A stretch of DNA of 64,000 bases from a virus (IMGVR_UViG_3300000756_000009:1-64000), one strand, 5' to 3'; counted from the first letter of the stretch, positions 5,418-54,542 are shown. Notes: a model not told the origin generated them from the sequence alone. Made by a program: numbers and translations.

Positions 5418-6095
5418 ATGTCACAGATAATAATAGCAGAAGCAGTATCAAGAATAAGAGGTCAGGTTAAAGCTGAGGTTCAAGATTCTTTTGTAACAGA
5501 TAGATATATTTACAGTTTAATAGAAAAGTTTTCTCAAGTTTTAATGAGAAGACAAGACTCATTAAATAAATTAATGAAATTCAATTCTGTATGGTCAACT
5601 CTTCCATATGTAGAATTAATTGATGTTGATAAAGTAGAAGCAGGTTGTTCTGGAATAACTAGTGGATGTACAATCAAACGTACAAAACTTAAGTTACCTT
5701 CAATGATTGAAGGTTATTGGGGACCACTTATTAGGACCATAAGTTCTATAGATGGTTCACAAGAACTTCAAGCAACATATCCTGGAATATATACATCCAT
5801 GACTAAAACAACATCTTTTAAATATAATAGAGTAAAATATTTTTGGTGGTTAAATGGTTATATTTATTCACCTAATATTGAATGGGATGCTATCAAAGTT
5901 GAGGGTGTATTTAATGAAGATATTACAAAATGGAATTGTGATGAAAAAGATGATTGTACTCCCAGATATAAACAACCAATTTATGTACCTGAAGCAATGT
6001 TTGCAGAAATTGAATCTCAAATCATAAACATTATGATGAATACAATGAAGGTACCAAGTGAAGATTCTGATAATAAACAAAACATAAATAGATAA
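5418..6095 (+). CDS. Tail ring/adaptor-like structural protein
   Basis: 225 aa. Size, position upstream of the muzzle-like gene and the terminal helix (VPEAMFAEIESQI) fit crAss-like ring proteins. Assignment rests mainly on synteny. Confidence 0.55.
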   Translation: MSQIIIAEAVSRIRGQVKAEVQDSFVTDRYIYSLIEKFSQVLMRRQDSLNKLMKFNSVWSTLPYVELIDVDKVEAGCSGITSGCTIKRTKLKLPSMIEGYWGPLIRTISSIDGSQELQATYPGIYTSMTKTTSFKYNRVKYFWWLNGYIYSPNIEWDAIKVEGVFNEDITKWNCDEKDDCTPRYKQPIYVPEAMFAEIESQIINIMMNTMKVPSEDSDNKQNINR

Positions 6096-7036
6096 TGAGC
6101 GTATCACATAAATATAGAACATTCACTCAATTATATGAAGACGTTGCTGTTGACTTTGCATCTTACTCATTAGAAGGATTGATTGAACCTCAGCAATTAA
6201 TTAAAGTAGCTACTAGAATTAATTATGAACTTGGTTTAAAAATACATAGAACTAAGGAAACTATAATTGATGTAGAACATGGTAGAGCTCAATTACCTAG
6301 AGATTTTGCATATATTAATTATGCATTTCTTTGTGGTGAGTATCATATCAATGCATCAATGCCATCAGGTACACACGTTGAAACTTTTAATGATGTGCCT
6401 TACGTACCTGCACCTGGAGAAGTTGCTACATGCAGTACAGGAACAGGATGTGCTGATGTATGTGTAGTTCAAACATGTGATGATAAAAATAGTTATCAAT
6501 TAGTTCAAAGGATTTCTCCAAATCAATATAGAACTTATAGTACTTGGACTGAATTAAAAATTCAAGATATAAATCAAAAGAGTTGTTTTTGTCCTGATTT
6601 GGCAGCACAAGCTCCAGACATTGCGCAAATAGTTGATGGTTTTTTAATGACTAATTTTACTAGTGGTAGAGTTTATATTAGTTATCAAGGGGCTATGGAA
6701 TCACCTGATGGAGATTTATTAGTTCTTGATCAACCTCTTTGTAATGAATATTATGAATATGCATTGAAACAAAGGATATTAGAAAACATGATTTGGCAAG
6801 GTGAACAAATGGCTCCTCAATTACAATTGGTTGAAGCACGTTTAAGACCTGCAAGAAATAATGCATTATCATTTGTAAATACACCAGATTTTGCTGAAAT
6901 GCAAAAAGTCTTTATAATGAACAGAAGAGCTCAATATCATAATTATTATAATATGTTTATGAGTCATGCTCCATATAACCCAAGACTTCATAAAGGTATT
7001 AATACATCAAGCAGTATTAATAACCCTACACATTAA
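6095..7036 (+). CDS. Tail ring/tubular-like structural protein
   Basis: 313 aa, translationally coupled to the previous gene (TAATG overlap). C-terminal helices (NEYYEYALKQRILENM) and a Cys-rich insert (CSTGTGCADVCVVQTC). Confidence 0.55.
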   Translation: MSVSHKYRTFTQLYEDVAVDFASYSLEGLIEPQQLIKVATRINYELGLKIHRTKETIIDVEHGRAQLPRDFAYINYAFLCGEYHINASMPSGTHVETFNDVPYVPAPGEVATCSTGTGCADVCVVQTCDDKNSYQLVQRISPNQYRTYSTWTELKIQDINQKSCFCPDLAAQAPDIAQIVDGFLMTNFTSGRVYISYQGAMESPDGDLLVLDQPLCNEYYEYALKQRILENMIWQGEQMAPQLQLVEARLRPARNNALSFVNTPDFAEMQKVFIMNRRAQYHNYYNMFMSHAPYNPRLHKGINTSSSINNPTH

Positions 7037-7054: not shown

Positions 7055-10000
7055 ATGGCACAGCAAAATGAAAATCCTGGGACATCTTCTGTAAATACTA
7101 ATTCATTCATTAAAGGAATGAATAAAGATATTACGCAGGCAATGGAACCAAAAGAAAGTTGGTGGCATGCGCGTAATGCAATGAATAATTCTACTGATGG
7201 AGATCTTGGTGTAATAGGTAATGAACCATCAAACTTACAATGTGGTGTAATTCCATATACAATTATTGGTGCTATACATAGATATGCTGATCAGTGGATC
7301 ATATATTCTACTGATGATATAAATTCAGAAATTGGTTTATTTGATGACAGTGAATGTAAGTATGAAGTTATTGTAAATGATCCTTGTTTAAATTTTAATA
7401 GAAAATATTTAATAGTTGGTGCAGCTAAAGAGAATTTTGATTGTACTTGGCAAGTATATTGGGATGATGGAAACAATCCTTCACGCTCATTAAACATTAA
7501 TAAAGTACCGTGGATTCAAACTGTATCTTCTGCACCTGGTGATCCTTGTGTTACTTTTGCTGATACAAAACAATTAAATTGTGAGAAAATAAGATTAGCT
7601 CCTTTAGTTGATACACCTTGTATTACTTTAAGTAAATCAATAGATGGTGGTATGTTACAAAATGGAGCATATCAAGCATTTGTTGCTTATACAGAAAATG
7701 AACAAAAGGTAACTGATTACATTGGTATTTCTAATGTTCAAACATTATGGTCACATGCCGGTACAGGGGGATCATTAAATCTTAAACTAAGTAATTTAGA
7801 TAAAGATTATGATTACTATGAGTTAGTATTATTAGTTAGAAATCAAGGTCAGATATATGCTAAACGTATAGGTCTATATAGTACACAACAACAAGATATT
7901 AACATTGATTATATTGATGATACATTAGTTGCTGTTAGTTTAAAAACAATACCTCAAAGAAGTCCTGCTTATGAAAAATCAAATGCAATGTATGTTGTAA
8001 ATGATTGGTTAATTAGACAAGGACCTGTGAGTCAATTTGATTTTAACTATCAACCAATAGCAAATGATATTAAAGTTAATTGGGTAGCAAATCAGATAGA
8101 TGCTAGTTATTATCATTTAGGTGGTAATAAATTGGGATTCTTAAGAGATGAACAATATGCATTCTTTATTAGATGGATTTATAACACAGGAGAAAGATCT
8201 TCTTCTTATCATATTCCAGGAAGAGCACCAAGGCCATTTACAACCCCTTCAGGGACATATCTAGAAACAGATATTATATATGGTGCTAATGTTTTAGACA
8301 CGGCTGGAGATCCTTTATATAAGGTTTATAATACAGGAACAATTACATCATCAGGTTTAAATGAAGTTCAGCCAGATGGTTCATTAGTTATTGCTAGAGG
8401 TGAAATGGGATATTGGGAATCAACTGAAAGATATCCTTCTAATAGACCAGACATTTGGGGTGACCTTTGTGGCAAGCCTATTAGACATCACAAGTTTCCC
8501 ACTGAAGAAGTAGGGGGTGCAAATTCACCATTACATATAAGTACAACAAACGGAGATTTAATTAATGTCTTGGGTGTTGAATTTAAAAATATTGGAAGAC
8601 CAAAATATAATGATGGAACATATATACCAAATGTTGTTGGTTATGAAATATTAAGAGGATCTAGAGCAGGTGCCAAATCTATTTTAGCAAAAGGATTATT
8701 TAGAAATATGCGTAAGTATACTATACCTAACGCAGAAAATTTAATAGGTGGTAATGTTCAAGGTTTATATCCTAACTATCCATACAATGATTTAAGACCA
8801 GATGTTTATTTTCATGATGGTGCTGCTAATAGCATTCATAGAACAAATGGTTGTAATAGTTTTACTGAATCAATAATTAGTTTTAAACCATTGGGTTCAG
8901 CTCCGGCTATAGCAGGTGATCCTTCTGGATATTCTAAAAAAGTATTTACTTTTTCATCACCAGATCTAATGTTTACTAAGCCTTTTCTTAATGCTTATGA
9001 AACTAGACTTTATGGATATTTAAGTGGTAATCAATCAGGTGCTTTTAAAGCATCAGAAGATCATCCTCAATTTAAGTTACTAAGAAATGGTTCAGCAATA
9101 ATAGCCTCAATTGTAGGTTTGGGTTATGCTATTGCTCAAATTCAAGGAGAAAGAGGAAGCACAAGATCATCAGGAACTTCTGGAGGGTGGATGGCAGATG
9201 ATTTTGTTTTAGCTTTCGGTTCAGGTGCTTCAACAGGTGTTGTTGGAGTAGTGGGTGCTGGACCAAATTTTCTTTCAAATTCAGGTGGTGCTGCAATTAA
9301 TGCAGGTATTATTGCTACTCTTTCAAATTTATATGAAAGTGGTGATAACGCTTTGGCTTTTCTTGATTTATGGGATGGTGGTCTAGGTATAGAACTTGCA
9401 GGTCAAGCATTTTCTACAGCCTCTAATACAGTAGGTATAGCTCCTGCAGGAATAAGTGGAGAATATGTAATTACTAATACTCAAAATACACCTCTTTCTC
9501 AATTACCAATAGCAATTACAGCATTTGTTACATTTTTTACATCAGCGGCAAATATTGCTATTGGTGGCAATGAAATAATAGAGTTAATTTATAATTTGGT
9601 TAACAAATCAGATTTTGTATTTAAATATAATTCAGCAGGATTTTTTAATCAATTTACAAAAATTAACACAGGATTATTTAGAATTAAAAATACAGATTCA
9701 AATTATTTAGGTCAATCATTTCAATCATTTGATGGTGGTAAGTATAAAATAAATAATTTATTTAGACCATCTACTGTAGCTGTTTCTTTAACTGATGCTA
9801 TAGCAGAACCAAGTGTAGTTGATACATCAAGATTTACAATTGGGGGAATGGTTAATGCTGATGGTACAACCACTGAATTTTCTGATGAATATTTAACTAA
9901 TCCAACAGCTAAACAAAAAACATCTATATCTGCTTATTATGGTGCTCTTAAGTTTAATTTTGATAATCAGTATGGTCAACTAGATGGTATTAAGCAAGTT

Positions 10001-13000
10001 CAAATGAGAGGTTGTGTAGAATATTTAGATCCTACTAAACCTGATGCTTTTAAATATTCTAGTTCAGCTATATTTAGTGGTGATATATTTATTACTAGAT
10101 ATACTGAAAAAGTTATTATGCCAATATTTGCTCAATATTTATTAGGGCAACCAGATGAATTTACATATGATTATTCTCAACATACTAATATTCCATATCC
10201 AAGATTTTGGTTAAACTCCCAAAAATTTGACATGACTAAGTTGGGTAGAAGAATAGCAAGTTTTGGTATTAATTTTAATGAAAATGAATTAGATGCTTTG
10301 TTACCTAATGATTTATTTTATTTAGATAGAGGTAATGATAGTTGTGCTAATATTATTGCTACCATAATTGGTGAAAGTGATCCTAATCCAATGTTTGCTA
10401 TGAGATACGCATATATGTATTGTCATTCAAATGGTATATTAGATTTCTTTGTTGAGTCTGAAGTTAATTTAGCAAATAGAGATTGGGAAGATAGAGCTGA
10501 TGCAAGAATATATGATGTATATGATTATAATGATTTAGATGAATTATTTCATGCACAAATAGAAAAGAAAGACAACTTCTATAAATATGATGAATCATTA
10601 AGTCCATCTAAATTTGTAACACAGTTGGGTAGTTTTGGTGAGATTCAAGCAAGATACTATGATCCATATACTGCAGAAAATTGTTATGTTAGTTATCCAA
10701 AGAGATTAATCTATTCATTACAAGCACAGAAAGAATCTAAGAAAGATTTTTGGAGAGTGTTCTTGCCATTTAATTATCAAGACTTTAAAAACAAAGTAAG
10801 TGTAATTAAACCTATTAATAAAAATGGTGCTCTTATATTCTTTCCTTATTTGTCACCTCAAATGTTTCAGGGAATAGATGAGTTAAGAACACAGTTAGAT
10901 ACTAAACTTACTATTGGTGATGGAGGATTATTTAGTCAACCATTCCAAAATGTTGTCAATTCAGATTTATCAAATGAATATGGTTCATGTGAAAGTTTAA
11001 GAAGTGTTATGAATACACCTGTAGGTTTGTTTTTTATATCTCAAGCTCAAGGTAAAATATTCCACTTTACTGGACAAACATTAGATCCAATATCTAATGC
11101 TGGAATGAAATGGTGGTTTAATAAATACTTACCATCTCAACTTGTTAAACAATATCCTCAATTAGAATTTTCACCACTATCTGATAATCCTGTAGTTGGT
11201 GTTGGTTGTCAAACAATCTATGATCCTAATGATGATATAGTTTACTTTATGAAAAAAGACTATAGAGTTAAGGCTGAATATATTGCTAGTATTACATATA
11301 CTGAAAATAGAGGATTTGCTTTATTAGGAAACCCTATTACATTAGGTGACCCAATATTTTTTGAAGATTGTTCTTGGACTGTAAGTTATGATCCCAAAGC
11401 TAAAGCTTGGATATCATTTCATGATTGGCATCCAGAATTTGCATTGCCTAGTATTAATCATTTCTTTACTACTAAGACAATGGTTACAACTATTCCACAA
11501 TGTCCTCCGGGTTATATATATAATGCTAGTAATGGATTATGTGAACAATCAATTAATATTAGTGAACGTGCTATTATTACAGTAGATCAAGTTAACTCTA
11601 CTATTACTGGTGGACCTGAAGATTGTTTGGTGGATATTATTGTTGCAATGGATACATCAGGCTCTACTGATTCAGAGGGACGCAAAGAAGCTCAATTAGC
11701 ATGGTTAGATGCATTTTTAAAAGACTCTAATATAACTGCACCAATGGCTGCAGGTAAAATGCAGATAGGCTTTACATCATGGAGTTCTGGTAATATAAAT
11801 TATAATATACCAAATCCATTGGGTGGTACTTGGTCAATGAGTAATACAGTTACCCCAAGTCAAGTTGCTGCCTGGTATAATAGTAACTGGCAAAGTGGAG
11901 GTACAAATGTTTATTTGGGTATGTCTAGTGGACAAACCAGATTAAATGCAAAGTCAACAAGTAAATTGGGTGACAGAAGTGCACAACCTTCTTTTAGACA
12001 AATTTTAATATTAGTTACTGATACAACAAGTAATCCTGGTAATATAGGCTGTCCTTTTCAAGGCACAGGTGTTTCACCAAGTTCTACTGGTCCAGCTAAT
12101 CAATTAGTATATGCATTGTATTGTGGTGCAACTAGTGCTGTACCAACTAATCCTGCTGTATTAACAAATATATCTTGTACACCGGGACCTGTAAACGTTG
12201 ATGGATATCAGTTTGGAATTAATGCTGCTGTACCTGCAACGTTTACTGCTGTAGCAGCAGCTATTGCGGGATCTGTTTGTTCAATTCCATTTGTTTGTAC
12301 TTGTCCTACAGGTTATACAAAAGTGTTTTATGATTTACTGACAGCTACTTATTCTTCACCGACTGGTATATGTGATGATATTAAACCACCAATTTGTAGA
12401 AAAGTAACATGTACATGTCCAGTTTCTCCTGTAGGTACAACAACTACAACAACAGGAAACTGTGATGATGTTTATTTAGTTGGTAATCCTACCTATGCAA
12501 ATCCAAATCCACAGATTTGTAATTTTTATAAATATGAATCTACACCGGCTAATTTTAAAGTTGGTTCATTCTGGAAACATAATGTAAGGTGTGATAGTTT
12601 TGCTAATTTTTATGGTACTGATTATCCATGGGAAGTAGAATTGGTTTCTAATACAGGACAAATGGTTAATACCGTTAGAAGTATGGAATACCAATTAGAA
12701 AACTATGTGTATAAAGGGGACATGGGATTTGCTTGTAATGATGATAGATGGGAAGATTTAGACTTTAACTTTGACCAATCAATCATTTATAATAATGAAC
12801 AAGTATCTGGGTTATTGTTATTAACTCCAACACCATATAACAATCCTATATTAGAATTGAGTTATCCTATTATCAATCTGAATAGTATGAATATACTATG
12901 TTCTAAAGTAGAACAGAAATATAGATTCAATCAGTTCTATGATATTACTAATGATAGAGGAGAATTTACAAATGCTGAACAAGCAATATGGGAAACACAA

Positions 13001-13177
13001 CCAAATGGATATATCAAAGTTTTAAATACTATAAACTTAAATTATAATAAAGCTCCATTACAACACAAGAAGTTTAGACATTACTATACCAATGTTATTT
13101 TAAGAAGGGTTAAATCAGAAAATAGAAAGATGTTATTGAGATTGAATAACACTAAATTACTTTTATCAATGAGATAA
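7055..13177 (+). CDS. Muzzle / tail-stabilisation-like protein with an inserted VWA domain
   Basis: 2040 aa. N-terminal FIKGMNKD...NAMNN motif and beta-propeller-like repeats (WDDGNNPSRSLNI; WTVSYDPKAKAWISFHDW) typical of crAss-like tail-stabilisation proteins. VWA MIDAS motif DTSGS at 11651-11665. Confidence 0.7.
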   Translation: MAQQNENPGTSSVNTNSFIKGMNKDITQAMEPKESWWHARNAMNNSTDGDLGVIGNEPSNLQCGVIPYTIIGAIHRYADQWIIYSTDDINSEIGLFDDSECKYEVIVNDPCLNFNRKYLIVGAAKENFDCTWQVYWDDGNNPSRSLNINKVPWIQTVSSAPGDPCVTFADTKQLNCEKIRLAPLVDTPCITLSKSIDGGMLQNGAYQAFVAYTENEQKVTDYIGISNVQTLWSHAGTGGSLNLKLSNLDKDYDYYELVLLVRNQGQIYAKRIGLYSTQQQDINIDYIDDTLVAVSLKTIPQRSPAYEKSNAMYVVNDWLIRQGPVSQFDFNYQPIANDIKVNWVANQIDASYYHLGGNKLGFLRDEQYAFFIRWIYNTGERSSSYHIPGRAPRPFTTPSGTYLETDIIYGANVLDTAGDPLYKVYNTGTITSSGLNEVQPDGSLVIARGEMGYWESTERYPSNRPDIWGDLCGKPIRHHKFPTEEVGGANSPLHISTTNGDLINVLGVEFKNIGRPKYNDGTYIPNVVGYEILRGSRAGAKSILAKGLFRNMRKYTIPNAENLIGGNVQGLYPNYPYNDLRPDVYFHDGAANSIHRTNGCNSFTESIISFKPLGSAPAIAGDPSGYSKKVFTFSSPDLMFTKPFLNAYETRLYGYLSGNQSGAFKASEDHPQFKLLRNGSAIIASIVGLGYAIAQIQGERGSTRSSGTSGGWMADDFVLAFGSGASTGVVGVVGAGPNFLSNSGGAAINAGIIATLSNLYESGDNALAFLDLWDGGLGIELAGQAFSTASNTVGIAPAGISGEYVITNTQNTPLSQLPIAITAFVTFFTSAANIAIGGNEIIELIYNLVNKSDFVFKYNSAGFFNQFTKINTGLFRIKNTDSNYLGQSFQSFDGGKYKINNLFRPSTVAVSLTDAIAEPSVVDTSRFTIGGMVNADGTTTEFSDEYLTNPTAKQKTSISAYYGALKFNFDNQYGQLDGIKQVQMRGCVEYLDPTKPDAFKYSSSAIFSGDIFITRYTEKVIMPIFAQYLLGQPDEFTYDYSQHTNIPYPRFWLNSQKFDMTKLGRRIASFGINFNENELDALLPNDLFYLDRGNDSCANIIATIIGESDPNPMFAMRYAYMYCHSNGILDFFVESEVNLANRDWEDRADARIYDVYDYNDLDELFHAQIEKKDNFYKYDESLSPSKFVTQLGSFGEIQARYYDPYTAENCYVSYPKRLIYSLQAQKESKKDFWRVFLPFNYQDFKNKVSVIKPINKNGALIFFPYLSPQMFQGIDELRTQLDTKLTIGDGGLFSQPFQNVVNSDLSNEYGSCESLRSVMNTPVGLFFISQAQGKIFHFTGQTLDPISNAGMKWWFNKYLPSQLVKQYPQLEFSPLSDNPVVGVGCQTIYDPNDDIVYFMKKDYRVKAEYIASITYTENRGFALLGNPITLGDPIFFEDCSWTVSYDPKAKAWISFHDWHPEFALPSINHFFTTKTMVTTIPQCPPGYIYNASNGLCEQSINISERAIITVDQVNSTITGGPEDCLVDIIVAMDTSGSTDSEGRKEAQLAWLDAFLKDSNITAPMAAGKMQIGFTSWSSGNINYNIPNPLGGTWSMSNTVTPSQVAAWYNSNWQSGGTNVYLGMSSGQTRLNAKSTSKLGDRSAQPSFRQILILVTDTTSNPGNIGCPFQGTGVSPSSTGPANQLVYALYCGATSAVPTNPAVLTNISCTPGPVNVDGYQFGINAAVPATFTAVAAAIAGSVCSIPFVCTCPTGYTKVFYDLLTATYSSPTGICDDIKPPICRKVTCTCPVSPVGTTTTTTGNCDDVYLVGNPTYANPNPQICNFYKYESTPANFKVGSFWKHNVRCDSFANFYGTDYPWEVELVSNTGQMVNTVRSMEYQLENYVYKGDMGFACNDDRWEDLDFNFDQSIIYNNEQVSGLLLLTPTPYNNPILELSYPIINLNSMNILCSKVEQKYRFNQFYDITNDRGEFTNAEQAIWETQPNGYIKVLNTINLNYNKAPLQHKKFRHYYTNVILRRVKSENRKMLLRLNNTKLLLSMR

Positions 13178-16100
13178 TGAATAAGAAAATACAACATAAA
13201 GAACTAAGAGGTTTACCCGGTGGTCCAAATGAAATGCCTGTTTATGTTACAGGAGTATTTTCTACAGAAGGATTTAGGATAGACAGCCCAGATGTTAATA
13301 ATTATGAAAACATTATTCCATCTGGATCTATTACTATGAAAGAAAGAGATGGTAGTCCTTTAAGAAAGGGACCAATTCATGGTATAGATAATTTGGGTAA
13401 TGAACAGGTAATGTATCCTGGATATGATTATGAATTTCCAGGAACAGAAGTAAAAGAAACATTACTTGCTAAAATGGGTGGTGGCTTATTAGATAAAACT
13501 ATTAAGTGTGGTAACTGTGGTTGGGAATGGAAAGCTGCTGATGGTGGTTCTGATATTTATAATTGTCATAAGTGTCCTGGTAAAGGTGTAGTAAAAGCAC
13601 AACCAGGTTATGAAGTTCCTAAAATGTATCCTGCACCAAGTCTAGAACTTCAGAAAAAAATACAAAGTTTTGTAGCACAAGAAGATGCTAAAAAGAAAGC
13701 TATAATAAAAGAACAAGAGGAATTAAAGAAGCAAGTTAAAGATAAACCTGTAATTGCAACTCTAAAGCCTAATTATAACAATGCATTTAATACTGATATT
13801 TCAGGACCATATGGTAATGGATATACTCAGGAACAACAAAGGTATTTTGAAAGTAAAAATATTCCCCCTCATTTGTGGGATTCGTCAGAAGAAAAAAAAC
13901 AATGGGATGCAGAAAAGAAAAGATTAGCGGAAGAAGCAATAGTACAAAGAAGAAAGGATGTTCAACAACAAGCCATTAAAGATCTTAATGCTGGAAATTT
14001 TACAACAGCAAGAGCTGAAAATCTTGGTAATGCTTTTAGATTATTTCCAGAAGATGCAGATAGTTTTATTGATAATTATATAAACCCTTTCCAAATGGTG
14101 GGAAGTATGGCTGGCAACTTAGGTAGACATTTTGCAAGTGATGCTGGTCCATTAGATTTAAAAGCTCTTGCATTAGATGTAGCTGCTCCATTAGCTGTTG
14201 GTGCAATTGGAGGATTGGGAGCTAAATCAACAGGTAAATTTGCAAATAACATTCTTAATCCATTAGCTGGAACAGGAAGATATTTAACAACAAAAACTCC
14301 TTTAAAAAATGCTTATAAGTTAAATCCTTTGGCAGCAAAAGAAAAGGATGTGGATATGTTATGGAGATGGGAAGCTGATCAAATACCTGCAGCTTTACTT
14401 GCAAAAAATGCAGTACCTTCAAAATATACTGGTAGATGGTTTCAAAAAGGAGAACCTCATGAGATTATAGATTATCTTAGATCAAGACCTGGACCCGGAA
14501 CATTAAAAGGACTTGCTTTACCTAAAGGTGTAGCAACTTTACCATCAGATGCAGCAAAATTTACTGGTTCTGAGTCATTAAAAAATATTGAAAGAATTGT
14601 TCCTTCAGACGCTTTAAAAAATACAACAGATTTTAGATTAGAAAATAATCCTTTTAGTGAAATAGATAATCCCAATTTTCTTGAAGATTTTAAATATTTA
14701 AATCCATTATTTAATAATGCTAAAATTAAACCAAATTGGTTAGATGGGTATGCTACAAAAAAATTAAATGTAGGAGATATAGCAAACAACTTAGGTGGTA
14801 AGTATTTACCAAATGCATATAAATTTAATCCTTTTGCATTTAAACCTAAGAGTGACGCATATTATAGACAAATTGGAGAACCCGGTTATTTGAATGCAAT
14901 ACAAGAAGGTAAAGTTTTATCAAAAGGTCAAAAAGAATTTTTAGCAAATAATCCTGAATTTAATTATTGGGATGAATATAATGAGTATATTGATTATGCT
15001 AATAGAAATGGAGGACTATATCTTAGAAAGCCAACAACTGCACCATTTTTTCAAAAAGGAGAATTATTTTTTCCACCATCTAATAAGACAGGATTTGGAA
15101 GAGGTAAAACAGCACAGTCAGACGTAAAGTATTTACTTGAAGGAAAATTACCGGATCAAGCAATAATACCAAGATATAGAGATCAACCATTAAGTAAAGA
15201 AGTATTTTATGGTCCAAATGGTGGTACAGGAGTTTTAGATTCTAGATATAGTGATTTATCAAATTTTGAAATATATCAACAGGATTGGTTAAGAGGATAC
15301 AAAAAAAAACAAGATGGTGGAGAACAAGAGTTTGTTAGACCTCCTGACTTACCTATATTGCCTAGTGATGCTGGTACTTTTAATAACTGGCTTTATGAAA
15401 AAGCAGATAAAAGACAGAAGCGTTTACAGGCAGAGTTTGATGTTAAAGATGCAGCAGATAAAGAAGGACGTTACATTAATAAGGCTAAGTATTTTGATTT
15501 GCTTACTACAGAGTTCTATGGACCTGATAGACCTTATGAAGAACTAACTGAGGATGAACAAACAAACATTAACAATATTCATAAAAATAGAAAAGCTAGT
15601 ATACAAAATATTAATTTAGTATCCTCTGACTTATCTAAATATGGTATCAAGGCAGGATATGATCCTAACTTACATACAATGTATGTTCCTGAAGTTCCTA
15701 CAGATAGAGGTGTACTTTCTCATGAGTTTTCTCATATGGGTGATCAAGCAATATTTGAAGAAGGTGTTAATCCTGGAGTAGGTACATACTTTACAGAACA
15801 ACTTACCAATTCTATTTATCCAAAACAAAGCCCTGATTTCTTAAATCAACCTTCTAGTCTTAAGAAAAATAAGACTGTAGGAGAGAACATAGAAGAGGGT
15901 TTTAATGAAGCAGACTATTTACAAGATCCTTCTGAAGTAAAGGCAAGACTTCGTGCATTAAGAGATTCTTCAATTCAACAAGGATACAAGTTACTAGAAC
16001 CCGGTTATAACATTAATAAATACAAAGAAGGGTTTAATAAAGAGGAGAAGAAGCAGTATGAACAACTTAAGAAGTCTGGTTTATCTGATGATAAAATAAA

Positions 16101-17157
16101 TGAGATGATGTACTTGTTTGCTAAGAATAATCAAACACAACCCACAATGGGAAAGAACGGTGTTGAAGTTATAGCACAAAATGGTGGAGAAGAAACTTCT
16201 TGGAGTGATTACTTAAATCCTATGAACTGGGGTGTTAGTAATAGAGATGATGCAGGTACATTTAAACAAGCGTTTAGAGCAGCACGTATTGACGGTGATT
16301 CTGATTTCTTATATCAAGGAAAAAGATATTCTACAGAGTTAAAAGCTACACCATCAGCACCCGCTAAACCAAAAGGAATAACACCAGAACTTTTAATAAG
16401 ACAAGCCTATAGAGAATCTGCATTTAATCCTAATGCTGTTTCTCCAGCAGGTTATAAAGGTTTAGGACAAATTGGAGATGGTGTAATTAAAGATTACAAA
16501 AAGGCAAACAATATTACAGGTAGTGTTGATCCTTTTAATATGAAACAAAACTCTGAAGTTCAAAAGTATTCAATGAATGAATTATACAATTCAAGTTTTA
16601 TTAATAAACCAGGACAATCAGAACAAGTAAGATTAGCAAAAACTTTAGCTGCATATAATTGGGGTAGAACTAATGTTATTAATTTATTGAATGATTTAAA
16701 AGAAGATGGTGTTGATATTTATAATAGTTTAGACTGGATTAGCAAATTACCAGATGAACCAAAAAAATATATTAATGATATACTATTACAAAAAAATACT
16801 ACCTTTAACACTGATTTTTCTAAGGCATTAGGTAATCAAAAGAATCTACCAATAAAACGTTTATATGGTTTTAGAGATGGTGGTGAATCAAAACCAGGGC
16901 CATTAATGCAGTCTTATAACAGACTTCCAATGGAAAAGAAAATGGGAGGTGCTATTGTTAATAAAAAACAATTTGGTGGCCAATTAAATTCTGGTAACAT
17001 TACTATGTATAAAGATTATATAAAAGGTAATATTGAAAATGAAACAGAAGCAATAAAAAACTATGATAAGTTAAATAGGATTTATTATAGTAAAGCAAAA
17101 GAACTAGGAATGAGTGCTGCAAATTACATAATGACGTATATTGTAGGCAACTCTTAA
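13177..17157 (+). CDS. Modular virion cargo protein: Zn ribbon, two ART-like cassettes, zincin and lytic transglycosylase
   Basis: 1326 aa. CGNC...CHKC; two cassettes bounded by NAYKxNP and WLxGY; HEFSH at 15721-15735; SLT motifs RES (Glu at 16414), GLGQI and AAYNWG (16648-16665). Confidence 0.7.
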   Translation: MNKKIQHKELRGLPGGPNEMPVYVTGVFSTEGFRIDSPDVNNYENIIPSGSITMKERDGSPLRKGPIHGIDNLGNEQVMYPGYDYEFPGTEVKETLLAKMGGGLLDKTIKCGNCGWEWKAADGGSDIYNCHKCPGKGVVKAQPGYEVPKMYPAPSLELQKKIQSFVAQEDAKKKAIIKEQEELKKQVKDKPVIATLKPNYNNAFNTDISGPYGNGYTQEQQRYFESKNIPPHLWDSSEEKKQWDAEKKRLAEEAIVQRRKDVQQQAIKDLNAGNFTTARAENLGNAFRLFPEDADSFIDNYINPFQMVGSMAGNLGRHFASDAGPLDLKALALDVAAPLAVGAIGGLGAKSTGKFANNILNPLAGTGRYLTTKTPLKNAYKLNPLAAKEKDVDMLWRWEADQIPAALLAKNAVPSKYTGRWFQKGEPHEIIDYLRSRPGPGTLKGLALPKGVATLPSDAAKFTGSESLKNIERIVPSDALKNTTDFRLENNPFSEIDNPNFLEDFKYLNPLFNNAKIKPNWLDGYATKKLNVGDIANNLGGKYLPNAYKFNPFAFKPKSDAYYRQIGEPGYLNAIQEGKVLSKGQKEFLANNPEFNYWDEYNEYIDYANRNGGLYLRKPTTAPFFQKGELFFPPSNKTGFGRGKTAQSDVKYLLEGKLPDQAIIPRYRDQPLSKEVFYGPNGGTGVLDSRYSDLSNFEIYQQDWLRGYKKKQDGGEQEFVRPPDLPILPSDAGTFNNWLYEKADKRQKRLQAEFDVKDAADKEGRYINKAKYFDLLTTEFYGPDRPYEELTEDEQTNINNIHKNRKASIQNINLVSSDLSKYGIKAGYDPNLHTMYVPEVPTDRGVLSHEFSHMGDQAIFEEGVNPGVGTYFTEQLTNSIYPKQSPDFLNQPSSLKKNKTVGENIEEGFNEADYLQDPSEVKARLRALRDSSIQQGYKLLEPGYNINKYKEGFNKEEKKQYEQLKKSGLSDDKINEMMYLFAKNNQTQPTMGKNGVEVIAQNGGEETSWSDYLNPMNWGVSNRDDAGTFKQAFRAARIDGDSDFLYQGKRYSTELKATPSAPAKPKGITPELLIRQAYRESAFNPNAVSPAGYKGLGQIGDGVIKDYKKANNITGSVDPFNMKQNSEVQKYSMNELYNSSFINKPGQSEQVRLAKTLAAYNWGRTNVINLLNDLKEDGVDIYNSLDWISKLPDEPKKYINDILLQKNTTFNTDFSKALGNQKNLPIKRLYGFRDGGESKPGPLMQSYNRLPMEKKMGGAIVNKKQFGGQLNSGNITMYKDYIKGNIENETEAIKNYDKLNRIYYSKAKELGMSAANYIMTYIVGNS

Positions 17158-17217: not shown

Positions 17218-19662
17218 GTGAAAGTAAACAAAATAAGTTTAAAGCAAGAGGGAGGACAAACTGTTGAACAAGTTGAGGCACAACCACAACAACAATCAAT
17301 AGATCCCGCTGTACAACAAATTTCAGATTATATTTCTCAAGCAATTAGTCAAGGACAAAATGCTGCAGAAGTTGTTATGTCTTTAATTCAACAACAAGTT
17401 GATCAACAAACTATTGGTCAAGCTTTGATGATGAATGGTTTTGAAGAAAATGACATCATGTCTTTGTTTGAACAAATGAGTCAAGGACAAGAAGAAGTTT
17501 CTAATGAACCAGGAAGTCCTGATGATTTAAATAATAATCCTCAAGAAATTTCTAGAAATGAAAGCTTGGAAGCTGCTGAGATGTCAGAAGAAGAAATGCA
17601 AGATCCTGGAATGGAAATGGGTAAATCAGGGATAGAAATTAAATCTGAGAATGAAGGCAAGTTTACTAGATGGGCTCAAGCACGTGGTATGTCTGTACAA
17701 GAAGCTGCAAGTAAAGTTATGTCTAATACAGATGAGTATCCACCAGCTGTAGTTAAGATGGCAAACTTTGCTAAGAATGCTGCTGGTTGGAAAAAACAAG
17801 ATGGTGGTGGAACAGATCCTATTAATAGTCAAGTTAATTCTGGAATTAATAAAAGTAATAAATTTGAAAGAGGTACAAGAATAATAGATCAGTATGCTCC
17901 TCAATTAAATATGAAACCTGATACATCATATATGTATCAATCTGATAATGGACCTCAATTTTATTCTAGTACTAAAAAAAATCCTGCTACAGATAAACCT
18001 TATTTTGAATATACTAATGGTAATAATACTAGTACAAACATGTCTAGTGATTCTACCAACATGTATATGAATAGAATAAAAGAGTTAGCTGGTTATCAAA
18101 TGGGTGGTGTTCCTCAAGGTAAAGTAGCAGCAGTTAATAATGTATCTGCTGGTAATAAAGATATGAATTGGCAAAGTGCTCCATTGTATATGAACCCAAT
18201 GGCATTTGAATCAAATGATAATTTTAGTTTAGGTAAAGCTGCTGCTGTTATTGGTGGTGGTTATAAAGAATTTTTAAGTGGTGCAGATGAAAATAAAGAT
18301 GGTATCAAAGATGGTTTCTTTAGAGATGGTAAGAAAAAAGCAGGTATAAGAGATGCAACTAAAGGTGATTATTATAATTATAAAGTTACTCAAGATGCTA
18401 ATGATACAAATAAATATGTGTCAGATAATACAGATTTATTTAATGCTTCAAAAAATAAAGGTAACTTAAGAACAGTTGATCAATATAATAAAGATGTATT
18501 AGATAACTCAAGATTTAATTATAATACGGCTACAAATAGTTATGATGGTATTCAAAGCAGTAGACCAATAGATGAAAGAATTTATAATTCAGATAATAAT
18601 AAAAATGCTTTAGCGGGTAAAGATTATAATTATTTAAAGAGTATGGATAAAGCTACCAAAGATATGATTACTGGTACTAAAGATGATCCACAAGGAACTA
18701 CACTTGGTATTGATGATAAAGGTCAAGCTTCATCTTATGCACCAGGTGCAGATAATCCATATGAATATAATACTTATATGGGTATTAATAAACTGGGAGT
18801 TAATCAAAACTCAATCATACCTACTGGAAATAATGGTCAACCTACTGCCGGTATGTTTAATACACAACCTACAAATACACCTCCAAGGATTCCGCAAAAA
18901 TCATTTAATGAGTGGAAAACGTATGATGCTGTAAGAAATCAAAGTAAAAGTCCAAGTGATCTTTCATCTGAATATAGTAAATATCTCAATGAAGACTATC
19001 TTAAAGAAGAATATAGATATGGTGGAGATCTAATGCAAGTTGGTGGTGAACCAATGTCTAAAGATGAATGGATGAATGCAAATGGAAGAGGTTTAATGGG
19101 ACAAGAATCAATTGATGAAAATGATTATCAAAAATATGCAACTTCAATAAAACCACCAGTTGCAACTCAAACACGTTTTACACCTTCAACAAGTTTACCA
19201 TCATTTGCACCTTCCAGTTCATTTTTAGGAAAAACTCCAAGTACGCCAGCTGTACCAGCTGCACCAACTTTTGAACCACCAAAAGTAGAGAGAACAAATA
19301 ATATTGAAGGTGGTTTTAATAGATTTATGGATAGTCCGGGTATGCAAGGTTATACAAAATTGTCTAACTTTGCAGTGCAAGGTGCGGATCTAGTTAATGA
19401 TTATTTTAGGGATAAAAGTATTAATCAAGCAAAAGAAGATAACTTTAATAAGTTAGGTGCTGATTATCAATATGCTACTGCAGAAGATCCTTTCAATAAA
19501 AGAGGACTGTGGGATATTAATACAGGAACTGCAGGAAGTGAAGGAGATAGAACAACCGGTTTATATTTGAGTAAATACGGTGGTGAAAACAATACTGTAA
19601 ATGTTGATTCAAATTTATTAGCAAAATTAATTGCAGCGGGAGCTGACATTGAAATATTATAA
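17218..19662 (+). CDS. Virion cargo/ejection-type protein, largely low-complexity
   Basis: 814 aa with GTG start, Q/E/M-rich and N-rich tracts, and repeated xxGG motifs. Lies in the cargo gene block. Confidence 0.6.
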   Translation: MKVNKISLKQEGGQTVEQVEAQPQQQSIDPAVQQISDYISQAISQGQNAAEVVMSLIQQQVDQQTIGQALMMNGFEENDIMSLFEQMSQGQEEVSNEPGSPDDLNNNPQEISRNESLEAAEMSEEEMQDPGMEMGKSGIEIKSENEGKFTRWAQARGMSVQEAASKVMSNTDEYPPAVVKMANFAKNAAGWKKQDGGGTDPINSQVNSGINKSNKFERGTRIIDQYAPQLNMKPDTSYMYQSDNGPQFYSSTKKNPATDKPYFEYTNGNNTSTNMSSDSTNMYMNRIKELAGYQMGGVPQGKVAAVNNVSAGNKDMNWQSAPLYMNPMAFESNDNFSLGKAAAVIGGGYKEFLSGADENKDGIKDGFFRDGKKKAGIRDATKGDYYNYKVTQDANDTNKYVSDNTDLFNASKNKGNLRTVDQYNKDVLDNSRFNYNTATNSYDGIQSSRPIDERIYNSDNNKNALAGKDYNYLKSMDKATKDMITGTKDDPQGTTLGIDDKGQASSYAPGADNPYEYNTYMGINKLGVNQNSIIPTGNNGQPTAGMFNTQPTNTPPRIPQKSFNEWKTYDAVRNQSKSPSDLSSEYSKYLNEDYLKEEYRYGGDLMQVGGEPMSKDEWMNANGRGLMGQESIDENDYQKYATSIKPPVATQTRFTPSTSLPSFAPSSSFLGKTPSTPAVPAAPTFEPPKVERTNNIEGGFNRFMDSPGMQGYTKLSNFAVQGADLVNDYFRDKSINQAKEDNFNKLGADYQYATAEDPFNKRGLWDINTGTAGSEGDRTTGLYLSKYGGENNTVNVDSNLLAKLIAAGADIEIL

Positions 19663-25479: not shown

Positions 25480-28400
25480 ATGGAAAATCCAATTGAAAAT
25501 AATAGTTTAAACCAAACAATTTTAAATAATCAAGTTACAGAAAGTGTTATCCCAAAAGATAATTCATTTCAACCTGTAATGGATATGTTTGATAGTGAAG
25601 AAAACAATGTTCTGATGAGCAGAATAGATTTAGCTCAATTGCAACAACTTGATGCATTAAAACCAATGATTGATAGTACCGGAATTAGATCTAATGGAAA
25701 TGCTGCTGCAAGAAGACCCACACTATCTTCTAATACATTTGATCCTGTTCTTCAACAAAATCCACCAAACTTAAAAGAACCCGGTGGAATTGAAAGATCT
25801 ATAGAACAATCATTGAATGAAGCTTTTCAAGAAAGTCAAGGAAATATAAAGCCCGGAACTGGTGTAGCTGCACCCGCATTTGCTAGTATGGTTCAAAGTA
25901 ATTTCAAACGTTATTATGAGCATCCTGAATTTCAAAAATTAGGATGGAAACCATATGCAGATAATGAAGCATATTATAATGCTAACTCAACCATCTATGA
26001 TGATATGAGTAGAATGTGGGGTCAGTTTGGAAGTTTAGTGGGAACAGGATTTGTTGGTGGATATAGAGACATTGGTGACATGTTTAGTGGTGAATCAATG
26101 GTGGCAGATTTAAAATCTGCAAATGAGTTTGAAGATGCTATGGCAATTGGTAGTTCAACTAGAGGTGGTGCTTTGGGTTTTACAAATAATTTATTATTAA
26201 ACTCAGCATATACAGTAGGAATTATTAGTTCTATTGCAGTAGAAGAATTGGCATTAGCTGCATTAGAAGTAGGAACATTTGGTGGAGCAACACCACTTGT
26301 AGCTGGAAGAAGCGTACTTAATGCAGCAAGATTAGCTGAATTAGCAAAAAATGTAGGTAAAGCAACTTCTATTGGTAGAATGTATAGTTCAGGAAGAACT
26401 ATGATGAATACTTTAAAAGGTATTGATGCAGCAAAAGATTTTTGGACAGCTAGTAAAATTGGAGGTAAAGCTTTTGCTGGTATTTTTGCTCCTGAAACTA
26501 TAGCCGCTGTTAATAGATTGCACACTACAGAAGTAGTTGCTCAAAATTTAAACAATATGGCTAAAGCATCTGAGTATGCTGGAGCATTTTATAGAGATGC
26601 TAGAGCTTTAAATTTAGCATTATCAGAAAGCAGACTTGAAGGAGGTATGGTCTATAATCAATTGATTAAAGACGGTATGGATATTAAATTTGCTGAAAAC
26701 AATGGTAGTCCCGTAACAACAGAACAAGTTGCAGATATTCAAAACAATGCACATAAAGCTGCATTTGCAACTACAATGACAAACATGCCTATAATATACA
26801 TAACTAATAAATTAGTTTTAGGTAATTCATTGGGAGGTTTTAATAAATCATTAGGTAGAATATTTAATGAACAAGCAAAAGGTATTGGAAGTAGAATTAT
26901 TAAAACTGCACAAACAGTTGGAAAAGATGGTGTAAAATCATTATCTCCATTTAAAGATGCTGGTACAGGACTTAAAGGATTAGCTACAACACTTGGTAAT
27001 GCCGGAGTTAAAGGTAACTTATCTAAGTTAGGTCAAGGTTCATTAAGGTATTTTGCAGCAAACTTAGGAGAGGGTATACAAGAACTTTCTCAAGAAGCTA
27101 TTTCTGCAGGTACTAAAAACTATTACACTTCTGTATTAAAAGATCCAATGAATGGAGGATCTGAATTATTTAATGCTTCTGTTAATGCTGGAATAGGTCA
27201 ACAATTTTCATCTCAAGGATTTGAAACATTTATGTCAGGATTTTTAATGGGTGGTATAGTTTCTGGGCCACAAAAATTATTTTTCCAAGGTGTACCTGCT
27301 TTATATCAAAGGGTTTCTAATCCAGAAAAATATGCTCAGTATAAACAAAATAAAGAAGACTATGTTAAATCTGTAGTTGATACTTATAATGCTGTTTGGA
27401 ATGAACAAGCACAAGATCCTAATTCAATTTTTGATCCTAAGAGATATAATTTTTTATTACAAAAAGCTGCAGCTCAAGGAAAGACATTAGCATCTATTGC
27501 TTATAATCAATTTGATTTTATTGATGAAACTGACTTTGCTAAGTTTCAACAGATCCATACTGTATTAACTACAGGTGGTGCTGCATTATTTCAAGATCAG
27601 TTAACTGATTATATGAAAATGTCTGATGAAGATTTAGCTACGGCTTTTCCATCAAGTAAAGCAGATGTTAAAAACGGAAAGATTAGAGAACGTCTTCAAA
27701 GTATGGTCAATCAAATTGATAAAACTGAAGAAGTATATAGTCAATCAAAAGATAGAAATCCAAATCCATTTACACCTGAATCTTATGAAAAAGGTTCAAG
27801 ACAATGGACAGAAGAAACACTTAAGAAAATTGCATTTGAACATGCAAGATATCTTTACATGTTTACCCAAGATGGATTTACTAGAGCATTAGAAAGATCA
27901 AATAGCATATATCAAAATTTAGCAGCTGAACCATTGTTTGAAAAAATGGCAGCTAGTGATTTAACAGTATTATTGGATCAAGATTCTATTGATAAAGAAA
28001 TACAAATGTTAACTGAAGAGGCTATTATTTTATCAGGAGATAAAATCAATGAAACTAAAGTAAAAGAAAAAACAGAAAAAATAGAAAGATTATCTGCATT
28101 CAAAAACATATTGCTAGAGAATCAAAATAAAGATGGTTCTTTTAATAAAAAGAAAATAGGATTACTTAGAAAAGAGTTTGAAAACTATGTTAAATACATG
28201 GCTCAAGCATCAGGTACTTTTGTAAATAAAGATAATATTGATGCTGCGTTAAAACAAATTATAGATTATACAGCATTAAAAGGTAGAGCTAAAGTATATG
28301 ATAAAGCAATTGAGTATTTGAATGATCCTCAAAAGTTTGATGTTATATTTCAAAGAACAGCTGAAGTATTACAAGAACAATACAAAAACAGAAAATCAAT

Positions 28401-50034: not shown

Positions 50035-50307
50035 ATGAAAGCTCAAGGTTTACAACAAGGTAAGATATCTAAACAAAGCGTAAAGCTATTGTGTAGAACA
50101 GGGGGAGAATTAGATGATGCTATGCAAGGATCTATGGTTGAAAAAATGAGAAAAGGTGGTGATGCTATGAGATATGCATCTAATGCTGATGGTTCAAGAA
50201 AGAAACAAGCATATAAAATGGGTGGTTATATTCAATCAGAAACAAAAAAATATAGAGGTGGTGGTGTACCAACAGCATTTATTTATTCTGGGTCATCTAA
50301 AAAATAA
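50035..50307 (+). CDS. 90-aa basic protein built from xxGG motifs
   Basis: Contains CRTGG, MRKGG, YKMGG and KYRGG. Confidence 0.75.
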   Translation: MKAQGLQQGKISKQSVKLLCRTGGELDDAMQGSMVEKMRKGGDAMRYASNADGSRKKQAYKMGGYIQSETKKYRGGGVPTAFIYSGSSKK

Positions 50308-54377: not shown

Positions 54378-54542
54378 ATGAAAAAATATCAAATAGGTGG
54401 AAGCATGCAATCACGCACAAGTGATGAATTAAATCCTAACAAAATGAAAAGTAAAGTTGCACCTAACCCCGGTTTTGTGCCATCTGGTTCAATGAGTCAG
54501 ATGAAAAAAGGTGGTCAAGTTAAAAAATCAAAAAAATACTAA
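54378..54542 (+). CDS. 54-aa basic micro-protein with two xxGG motifs
   Basis: Not in the ORF track: MKKYQIGGSMQSRTSDELNPNKMKSKVAPNPGFVPSGSMSQMKKGGQVKKSKKY. A-rich leader; the next ATG is 2 nt after the stop. Confidence 0.75.
   Translation: MKKYQIGGSMQSRTSDELNPNKMKSKVAPNPGFVPSGSMSQMKKGGQVKKSKKY

Follow-up and report, generated by a model that had tools for sequence, protein, structure and literature searches.

A gene at the cargo locus of a marine crAss-like phage encodes a modular, probably virion-packaged protein whose modules have been exchanged at glycine-glycine linkers

Background

What kind of protein does a crAss-like phage encode directly behind its tail ring and muzzle genes, and what marks the places at which that protein differs between close relatives? 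The question is raised by the open reading frame (ORF) 13177-17157 on the plus strand of IMGVR_UViG_3300000756_000009:1-64000, a stretch of 64,000 nucleotides (nt) that is referred to here as the window and comes from an 81-kb IMG/VR virus contig with a completeness estimate of 71%. The ORF is open throughout and translates to 1326 amino acids (aa). A preliminary description, made from the sequence alone, had read it as a virion-delivered string of effector modules separated by glycine-glycine (GG) motifs and possibly cut into separate enzymes. Few phages are as abundant as crassviruses, and the megadaltons of cargo protein inside their virions have functions that are largely obscure. We put the probability at roughly three in four that this gene of a marine crAss-like podovirus encodes a polyvalent cargo (ejection) protein packaged in the virion, with modules that are exchanged at linkers. 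The window belongs to a crAss-like phage, and it is called marine because the matches to homologues come from Tara and other marine samples.

Modules of the 1326-aa protein

A search of protein collections returned 211 homologues of 747-2304 aa, of which the best 119 were used for coverage counts. Residues 1-147 were common to approximately 80-90 of these 119 and residues 1001-1326 to approximately 75-89, while the region between them was covered by only 2-20. The N-terminal module, Zn ribbon, small domain, SLT domain and C-terminal tail make up a constant frame. The payload set into it is best modelled as a charged stretch with a membrane-type segment, a cassette called D1, a cassette of predicted ADP-ribosyltransferase (ART) fold called D2, and a zincin-like metallopeptidase. 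The modules, all on the plus strand, are as follows.

13177..13482, plus strand: constant N-terminal module, aa 1-102, ending LAKMGG; common to about 80-90 of 119 homologues
13483..13617, plus strand: Zn ribbon, aa 103-147, CxxC...CxxC with Cys 111, 114, 130 and 133, ending KAQPG
13618..14271, plus strand: start of the payload, aa 148-365, a charged stretch and then a Gly/Ala-rich hydrophobic segment, from composition and hydropathy
14272..14781, plus strand: cassette D1, aa 366-535, with only its flanks in common with D2
14782..15321, plus strand: cassette D2, aa 536-715, predicted ART fold from an AlphaFold2 (AF2) model and structure matches, ending KKQDGG
15322..16188, plus strand: zincin-like metallopeptidase module, aa 716-1004, from motif and predicted fold, HEFSH at 849-853 and Glu920, ending AQNGG
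16189..16362, plus strand: small domain, aa 1005-1062, which travels with the SLT domain
16363..16884, plus strand: SLT lytic transglycosylase domain, aa 1063-1236, Pfam PF01464, ending FRDGG
16885..17157, plus strand: constant C-terminal tail, aa 1237-1326, with KKMGG (1257) and KQFGG (1267); found in about 85 homologues

The coordinates that the preliminary description had given for the ORF and its GG motifs proved exact, and most of its module calls held up. The Zn ribbon that it saw contains the only four cysteines of the protein, and the KAQPG at its end is a degenerate form of the relatives' junction KAQxGG, which they spell KAQ[NKQ]GG. In the payload, 32% of residues 148-300 are K, E, D or R, and this stretch is probably helical. 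The hydrophobic hairpin of the preliminary description corresponds to a Gly/Ala-rich segment at aa 305-350, with its core at 326-349 and a top 19-aa Kyte-Doolittle window of 1.69 (aa 330-349). Its composition is similar to that of the predicted transmembrane helix of the crAss001 protein gp45 (PMC10172136). The payload-start region has 61 homologous segments among the collected proteins.

High-scoring segment pairs (HSPs) to most homologues begin at aa 1001-1005 and continue through the small domain, which has 44 homologous segments and is covered by PHROG 'lytic tail protein' profiles. Family 1 lytic transglycosylases carry a catalytic Glu in an E-S motif, followed by GLxQ and AYNxG. These motifs are intact in the predicted transglycosylase as RESAF (Glu1080), GLGQ and AYNWG at 1159, and Pfam PF01464 matches aa 1063-1170 with an E value of 2.2e-10 and 40.6 bits against a cut-off of 21.3. 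The SLT region also matches PHROG endolysin and internal virion protein families.

Exchange of modules at GG linkers

The preliminary description had held that domain boundaries coincide with GG, and had named the gain, loss and swap of modules exactly at GG sites in orthologues as a check. The main GG sites lie at aa 101-102 (nt 13477-13482), 714-715 (nt 15316-15321), 1003-1004 (nt 16183-16188) and 1235-1236 (nt 16879-16884). The number of GGs is not above chance, with 13 overlapping occurrences in the protein against 9.7 +/- 2.8 in shuffles (p = 0.16); it is their placement that stands out. Local alignments with homologues end at aa 99/101 (KMGGG), 146/147 (KAQPG), 706-720 (QDGGE), 1001-1005 (QNGGE), 1220-1235 (RDGGE) and 1261/1269 (KQFGG), and relatives carry insertions exactly at the border of the N-terminal module.

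Breakpoints were then counted in an all-against-all BLAST of 120 family proteins, restricted to HSPs with 60% identity or more. Within four residues of a GG lay 395 of the 911 breakpoint clusters, where 72.8 were expected. Relative to elsewhere, the density near breakpoints in non-redundant contexts was 7 times higher for GG, 19 times for GGE and 34 times for [AK]Q.GG, whereas the control dipeptides PG, SG and EE stayed at about 1. Aligned on their GG, the breakpoint sites approximate to K-[K/A/M]-[Q/K]-x-G-G-E, with Q in 35% or K in 31% at the second position ahead of GG. Met often comes immediately before GG, and internal translation starts at K-M-G-G junctions were for that reason considered as a possibility. 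A binomial p-value is not to be taken literally here because the breakpoint counts are phylogenetically non-independent, but from the effect size and the clean controls the strongly non-random placement of GG is convincing.

The same was seen in DNA. Eleven related loci (L002, L003 and L006-L014) were compared with the window; over the ring, muzzle and downstream genes, identity to it is mostly 80-92% for ten of the loci and about 70-77% for L014. Within ORF 13177-17157, homology breaks at the following places.

13442, plus strand: breakpoint within the gene
13469-71, plus strand: breakpoint with a 310-nt insertion in L013, just 5' of the GGG codons
13575, plus strand: breakpoint at CHKC/PGKG in the window, where relatives read CHKCGGE
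13601-23, plus strand: breakpoint at KAQPG, the most frequent, in 9 loci
16176-89, plus strand: breakpoint at the QNGG codons, in 8 loci
16875, plus strand: breakpoint at RDGG
16960/16979, plus strand: breakpoint at KQFGG, where a 20-nt overlap flanks an insertion of about 200 nt in L002, L006, L007 and L009

Six of the seven breakpoint clusters in the gene fall at a GG or at a site where relatives have one. The insertion of about 200 nt in the tail encodes an extra module of 62 aa between two copies of KQxGG. Orthologues measure 539, 575, 857, 1167, 1209, 1403 and 2054 aa. In the shortest, from L006, the Zn ribbon is joined straight to the small domain, SLT domain and tail, and the window gene can therefore be described as an 856-aa payload (aa 148-1003) in a constant frame. 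Elsewhere the payloads of relatives contain LysM together with a YkuD L,D-transpeptidase, DUF6973, PG_binding_1, SET, ART-PolyVal, DUF5872 or DUF3597; DUF6782 is also among the Pfam domains of homologues, and Pfam ART-PolyVal was found in homologue P0066. Related phages have thus gained, lost and swapped modules at GG linkers by recombination, as had been anticipated, at the protein and at the DNA level. Whole-protein tblastn against 50,697 GenBank phage records gave no match at an E value of 1e-5, and close relatives are perhaps outside that set.

The linkers that join the modules appear from the models to be short and disordered, with the core [A/K]-Q-x-G-G-(E); the models of D2 and of the zincin module have low predicted local distance difference test (pLDDT) values at their ends. 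Different codons (GGT, GGA, GGC) are used for the junction glycines, and unrelated modules each bear their own copy of the motif; selection on it thus appears to act in the protein, and not merely on a recombination signal in DNA. Nevertheless an identical 17-mer, AAAAAACAAGATGGTGG (KKQDGG), occurs at 15304-15320 and 17791-17807 in two cargo genes, where none is expected in shuffles, and microhomology may therefore also aid exchange, including exchange between genes.

Predicted folds of D1, D2 and the zincin module

The preliminary description had listed two ART-like cassettes. D2, folded alone, gave an AF2 model with a pLDDT of 88.2, and nearly all of the 50 rows of a wide VIA-align search with it were ART-fold proteins: DarT1 (Z 5.9), Tpt1 (5.7), TreX (5.6), heat-labile enterotoxin LT (5.4) and scabin (5.4), with pertussis toxin, PARPs, diphtheria toxin and others in further rows. 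Its top BFVD match was an 'ART-PolyVal-like domain-containing protein' (E 0.014, probability 0.99). Catalysis in the ART superfamily depends on an Arg or His on strand 1 and a Glu on strand 5. The candidates for these in D2 are R564, which lies on the first strand, and E655, which lies further on in another strand; both are nearly invariant among 52 sequences. The ART fold of D2 is thus supported at fold level, by modest Z-scores. D1 resembles D2 at the flanks: hhalign paired 24 columns of the N flank, with the leader LxNAYKxNPxAxK, at a probability of 95% and 21 columns of the C flank, with xWLxGY, at 57%, and the cores could not be aligned by it. In a joint D1+D2 alignment, MAFFT set the D1 homologues onto D2 columns. 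No Pfam match was found for D1 in 8 homologues, and its atlas matches to TreTu/ART-HYD1 are weak, with a score of 0.77. Because D1 and D2 align at their flanks only, the two cassettes are reduced to one ART cassette, D2, preceded by D1 in the same frame.

A longer form of the leader, LxNAYKxNPxAFKP, recurs in many metagenomic proteins of a set of about 100, often two or three times per protein and before different domains. The D2 model places it, with high confidence, against the ART domain, and it may be a second motif that heads modules.

The zincin call of the preliminary description was supported by motif and predicted fold. Among 18 sequences, H849, E850 and H853 of HEFSH hardly vary, and E920, the putative third zinc ligand of a gluzincin-type site, does not vary at all. 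The AF2 model, made from a shallow alignment, has a pLDDT of 79.6. VIA-align rows for this module are almost all zincins, including PepO (Z 6.6), Zmp1 (6.3), neprilysin (6.2) and anthrax lethal factor (5.7) as well as Pro-Pro endopeptidases and thermolysin. The best Foldseek matches are zincins too, but with E values of 0.15-2. Lethal factor is also a template reported for the metallopeptidase (MPTase) of polyvalent proteins by Iyer et al. (PMC5512222). We regard aa 716-1004 as a zincin-like metallopeptidase of predicted fold, supported at fold level. Since the Z-scores are modest, this call and that of D2 rely on how uniform the hit lists are and on the conservation of catalytic motifs. Searches of the D1+D2 and zincin regions against PDB sequences with phmmer and profiles returned spurious matches only. 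A more distant crassvirus also has the zincin module, 72% identical, at this locus; the 1637-aa protein that contains it is unrelated in its other parts, and the borders of the module there read AQMG and AQKG.

Position in the crassvirus cargo locus

The window, with a G+C content of approximately 31%, is a single long run of genes on one strand. The genes next to ORF 13177-17157 that place it are these.

6095..7036, plus strand: CrAss_Ring_1, tail ring protein 1 (Pfam PF24228, E 4.2e-09)
7055..13177, plus strand: crassvirus muzzle protein, 2040 aa (Pfam PF25731 crAss_MUZ, E 1.7e-26), overlapping the start of the cargo gene
17218..19662, plus strand: next gene of the cargo block, 814 aa with a GTG start, modular too by its DNA breakpoints and a gp45-like segment

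In Bacteroides phage crAss001 the gene order is gp43, gp44 (muzzle), gp45, gp46 and then the RNA polymerase proteins; the order in the window agrees, and relatives keep the order Ring_2, Ring_1, muzzle and variable protein. ORF 13177-17157 is assigned to the C1 position of a crAss-like phage because it lies directly 3' of the ring and muzzle genes, as does gp45. In crAss001, gp45 and gp46 are the cargo proteins C1 and C2; mass spectrometry has shown both to be in virions, and portions of gp45 were resolved by cryo-EM within the barrel of the tail and also within the capsid (PMC10172136). It is this synteny that places the multi-effector protein of the preliminary description at a locus for virion cargo, and its position, size, SLT domain and constant termini would all fit an ejection or cargo protein by analogy.

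The ORFs 3' of the gene encode 814, 840, 1063, 4532 and 1926 aa. In the first of them, ORF 17218-19662, DNA homology to 9 relatives breaks at 17809-15, by KKQDGGG (17803-17811), and at 18093-94, by YQMGG (about 18093), and then in Pro/Thr-rich linkers. The proteins of ORF2-4 had no modules in common with the collected homologues at an E value of 1e-6.

Weighing of the explanations

Several observations count against a packaged cargo protein with exchange at GG. Its presence in virions is suggested by synteny with the cargo genes of crAss001 only. Neither BLASTP nor hhalign with six module profiles found similarity to gp45, and Pfam gave no crAss_CARG1 match at E <= 1, a domain for which gp45 itself scores 2.3e-66. 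The fold matches are modest, with best Z-scores of 5.9 for D2 and 6.6 for the zincin and Foldseek E values above 0.01 against the PDB. Most breakpoints of the neighbouring genes fall in linkers rich in Pro and Thr instead of at GG, six of the GGs are internal to modules, one main junction is KAQPG, and shared ancestry of the 120 proteins inflates the breakpoint counts.

Some of these points are also what would be expected if GG were a mere flexible linker, at which breakpoints cluster since recombinants within domains are non-functional and purged. Any inter-domain linker would then gather the surviving breakpoints, as the Pro/Thr-rich linkers without GG do in the neighbouring ORFs, and a chance-level GG count is consistent with this. 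We consider the explanation conceivable, if on the whole doubtful: the [A/K]-Q before and the E after the glycines are kept beyond what flexibility needs, the 34-fold enrichment of [AK]Q.GG stands against about 1 for PG and SG, each module of unrelated fold has its own copy, and the same 17-nt junction sequence occurs in two genes. It is also possible, though somewhat unlikely, that the junctions are proteolytic sites at which the embedded zincin, another cargo zincin or a host enzyme frees the enzymes after packaging or ejection; this would add to the cargo reading and is compatible with it. Cleavage directed by GG is a known strategy, as in adenain, African swine fever virus pS273R and double-glycine leaders, and it would suit a motif that sits in disordered linkers and is kept at the amino-acid level, with variable codons, across unrelated pairs of modules. 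Zincin-like peptidases are moreover predicted to process polyvalent proteins, P1 DdrB being processed (PMC5512222), and polyprotein cleavage together with a zincin has been proposed for the crAss cargo block (bioRxiv 10.1101/2020.03.07.982082). However, only about 10-20 of the 119 homologues have the zincin, and nearly all have the junctions, the residue two before GG is mostly Q or K and not the M, L or I of the adenain consensus (M/L/I)-x-G-G↓x, and one major junction has decayed to KAQPG. N4 virion RNA polymerase is reported to be packaged unprocessed (PMC5512222), and gp45 peptides span the whole protein (PMC10172136). The GG-specific cysteine protease families C48, C39 and C5 had no member in the 81-kb record, a negative that is weak because the record is only 71% complete.

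Two further explanations dispense with delivered cargo. The protein might belong permanently to the structure of the tail tip, remaining on the virion as a lytic tail or needle protein and digesting the wall from outside without being ejected. Its PHROG matches to 'lytic tail protein' and to 'lytic tail fiber protein' would agree with this, as would the many payloads of relatives that bind or modify peptidoglycan (LysM, YkuD, PG_binding_1). We nonetheless judge it improbable: the gene lies in the cargo block and not among fibre genes, the ART and zincin modules and the membrane-type segment suit delivered effectors, and in crAss001 the muzzle closes the tail with the cargo inside (PMC10172136). 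In addition, such an enzyme would have to be translocated because the Gram-negative wall lies beneath the outer membrane. That the gene encodes a late multi-domain endolysin, or another non-virion protein that lies in the structural block by chance, would account for the SLT domain and the PHROG 'endolysin' match, but the size, constant termini, hypervariable payload, cargo synteny and ART and zincin modules are all atypical of such proteins, which makes this very improbable.

Comparison with known systems

Polyvalent proteins are giant proteins of phages and conjugative elements with 2-15 disparate effector domains and a zincin-like MPTase as a hub (Iyer et al. 2017, PMC5512222). Like the window protein by its predicted folds, they combine zincin, ART (ART-PolyVal) and lysozyme or transglycosylase domains on one polypeptide, and co-delivery with DNA and processing by the MPTase are predicted for them (PMC5512222). 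The window protein is phage-encoded and carries a Zn ribbon, a predicted ART fold, a predicted zincin, an SLT domain and at least four uncharacterised modules; on the whole it fits a 'polyvalent protein' at a crassvirus cargo locus. No Pfam polyvalent-protein model matches the window protein itself, ART-PolyVal matching only a homologue, and an atlas match to LPD23, one of the LPD domains that count as a hallmark beside the MPTase and ART-PolyVal, is a lead only. Iyer et al. describe no junction motif, no exchange of cassettes at linkers and no crAss phages (PMC5512222).

The C1 protein of crAss001 (gp45; PF25725) likewise lies directly 3' of the muzzle gene and has a Gly/Ala-rich hydrophobic segment in its N-terminal third, x-GG motifs between structured segments, and an extended bead-like shape that fits the proposed extrusion from N to C terminus. 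Unlike the window protein, it has the portal-binding crAss_CARG1 domain and no recognised enzyme domains (PMC10172136). In gp45 (L001 11988-14516) there are six aromatic/aliphatic-x-GG motifs, SAYGG, FAEGGG, KAFGG, AKDGG, NAFGG and FAYGG, several of which directly precede segments resolved by cryo-EM (aa 214-245 and 425-552). A segment of the neighbouring ORF 17218-19662 (aa 139-191) is similar to gp45 aa 376-423 by BLASTP (E 4e-5), is bounded by GG in both, and contains 'GKFT...FAxNAxxW'. Together, the motifs of gp45 and this common GG-bounded segment suggest that GG-bounded modularity may be general for crassvirus cargo proteins.

Other systems share single traits. T7 gp16 and PHROG 342, 'internal virion protein with endolysin domain', likewise carry an SLT domain inside the virion on a large ejected protein, where it serves to open peptidoglycan for the DNA conduit, but their architecture is fixed, whereas in the window protein the SLT domain belongs to a constant frame that accepts variable cassettes. 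In the CdiA (VENN) and Rhs (PxxxxDPxGL) toxins a short motif also borders exchanged enzymatic cassettes, and the Rhs border motif is a cleavage site too (Zhang et al. 2012, PMC3482391); by analogy, this border is the nearest counterpart of the GG junction. Polymorphic toxins have a single variable C-terminal toxin behind a trafficking domain, an adjacent immunity gene and a secretion system, whereas the window protein has multiple internal modules between constant ends, bears a different motif and is encoded by a phage. The architecture is accordingly not that of a polymorphic toxin, and no immunity gene was noticed, no search having been aimed at one; the next gene encodes a large cargo protein. 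The proteins gp65-gp67 of phage phi14:2 come from the same gene block, are packaged in the virion and include one zincin-like protease, which was proposed to activate cargo or to digest the wall, with polyprotein fusions that are 'likely cleaved' (bioRxiv 10.1101/2020.03.07.982082). There the zincin is on a protein adjacent to the RNA polymerase, and modular exchange is not described (bioRxiv 10.1101/2020.03.07.982082).

The term 'undescribed system' of the preliminary description was therefore too strong, since the three reports just named on polyvalent proteins, on crAss001 and on phi14:2 were already published (PMC5512222, PMC10172136 and bioRxiv 10.1101/2020.03.07.982082). Its observation is confirmed and its interpretation is partly supported. 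The concepts of polyvalent proteins and of crassvirus cargo are known, and what looks new is a defined junction motif with exchange of cassettes among near-identical phages; in the papers searched we found no description of a GG junction, or of ART or transglycosylase cargo, in Crassvirales.

Proposed mechanism and implications

We infer packaging, ejection, enzyme activities and targets along the following lines. The protein would be stored in the capsid or tail and, in the way suggested for gp45 (PMC10172136), extruded from N to C terminus through the muzzle and tail so as to precede the DNA. The SLT domain would open peptidoglycan, a wall at which many of the relatives' payloads would be aimed too, and the payload enzymes may be directed at the host or at other cargo. 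Candidates for early effectors are the module of ART fold and the zincin, although the zincin could alternatively process cargo. Small, independently folding modules with disordered linkers would suit a narrow channel: the linkers may let each module unfold and refold alone during passage, and may also keep new combinations in frame and functional.

A bolder version, which we think unlikely, gives [A/K]-Q-x-G-G-(E) two roles at once as a dedicated signal of crassvirus cargo proteins: it would be an in-frame docking site for exchange of enzyme cassettes within and between cargo genes and lineages, a counterpart in phages of the VENN or Rhs borders, and also the recognition site of a virion-associated protease that cuts the ejected string into separate effectors in the host. 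If this were true, the cargo locus would be a programmable, fast-evolving cassette for effector delivery.

On the reading as packaged cargo, the first cargo gene in this marine lineage is a hypervariable carrier of enzymes, with peptidoglycan enzymes, an ART-fold module and a metallopeptidase among them, and phages that are otherwise about 90% identical swap cargo enzymes at a peptide junction that can be recognised. The junction thus offers a rule by which giant cargo proteins can be divided into modules, a route by catalogue to new early-infection effectors and possibly counter-defence enzymes, and a concrete candidate signal for processing or packaging. Sites are suggested, too, at which foreign modules might be inserted for phage-delivered proteins in laboratory phage-host systems.

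Other features of the window

A GG-ended N-terminal leader was considered as a typical trait of cargo proteins and rejected, since GG occurs within the first 30 residues of several cargo ORFs and of unrelated ORFs too. In the muzzle gene, 9132-9551 and 11614-12286 have no homologous DNA in relatives whose identity is 86-92% elsewhere; these variable segments fit the crass and Ig-like domains of crAss001, which have been described as prone to insertion. ORF 25480-39078 (plus strand, 4532 aa) had no Pfam match at an E value of 0.01, and its L003 orthologue was called at 3650 aa; by its position it is presumably a virion RNA polymerase fused with neighbouring cargo proteins. Two tiny ORFs on the plus strand, 50035-50307 (90 aa) and 54378-54542 (54 aa), have motifs of the K/Q-x-GG type at both ends, for example MKKYQIGG... 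and ...QMKKGGQVKKSKKY.

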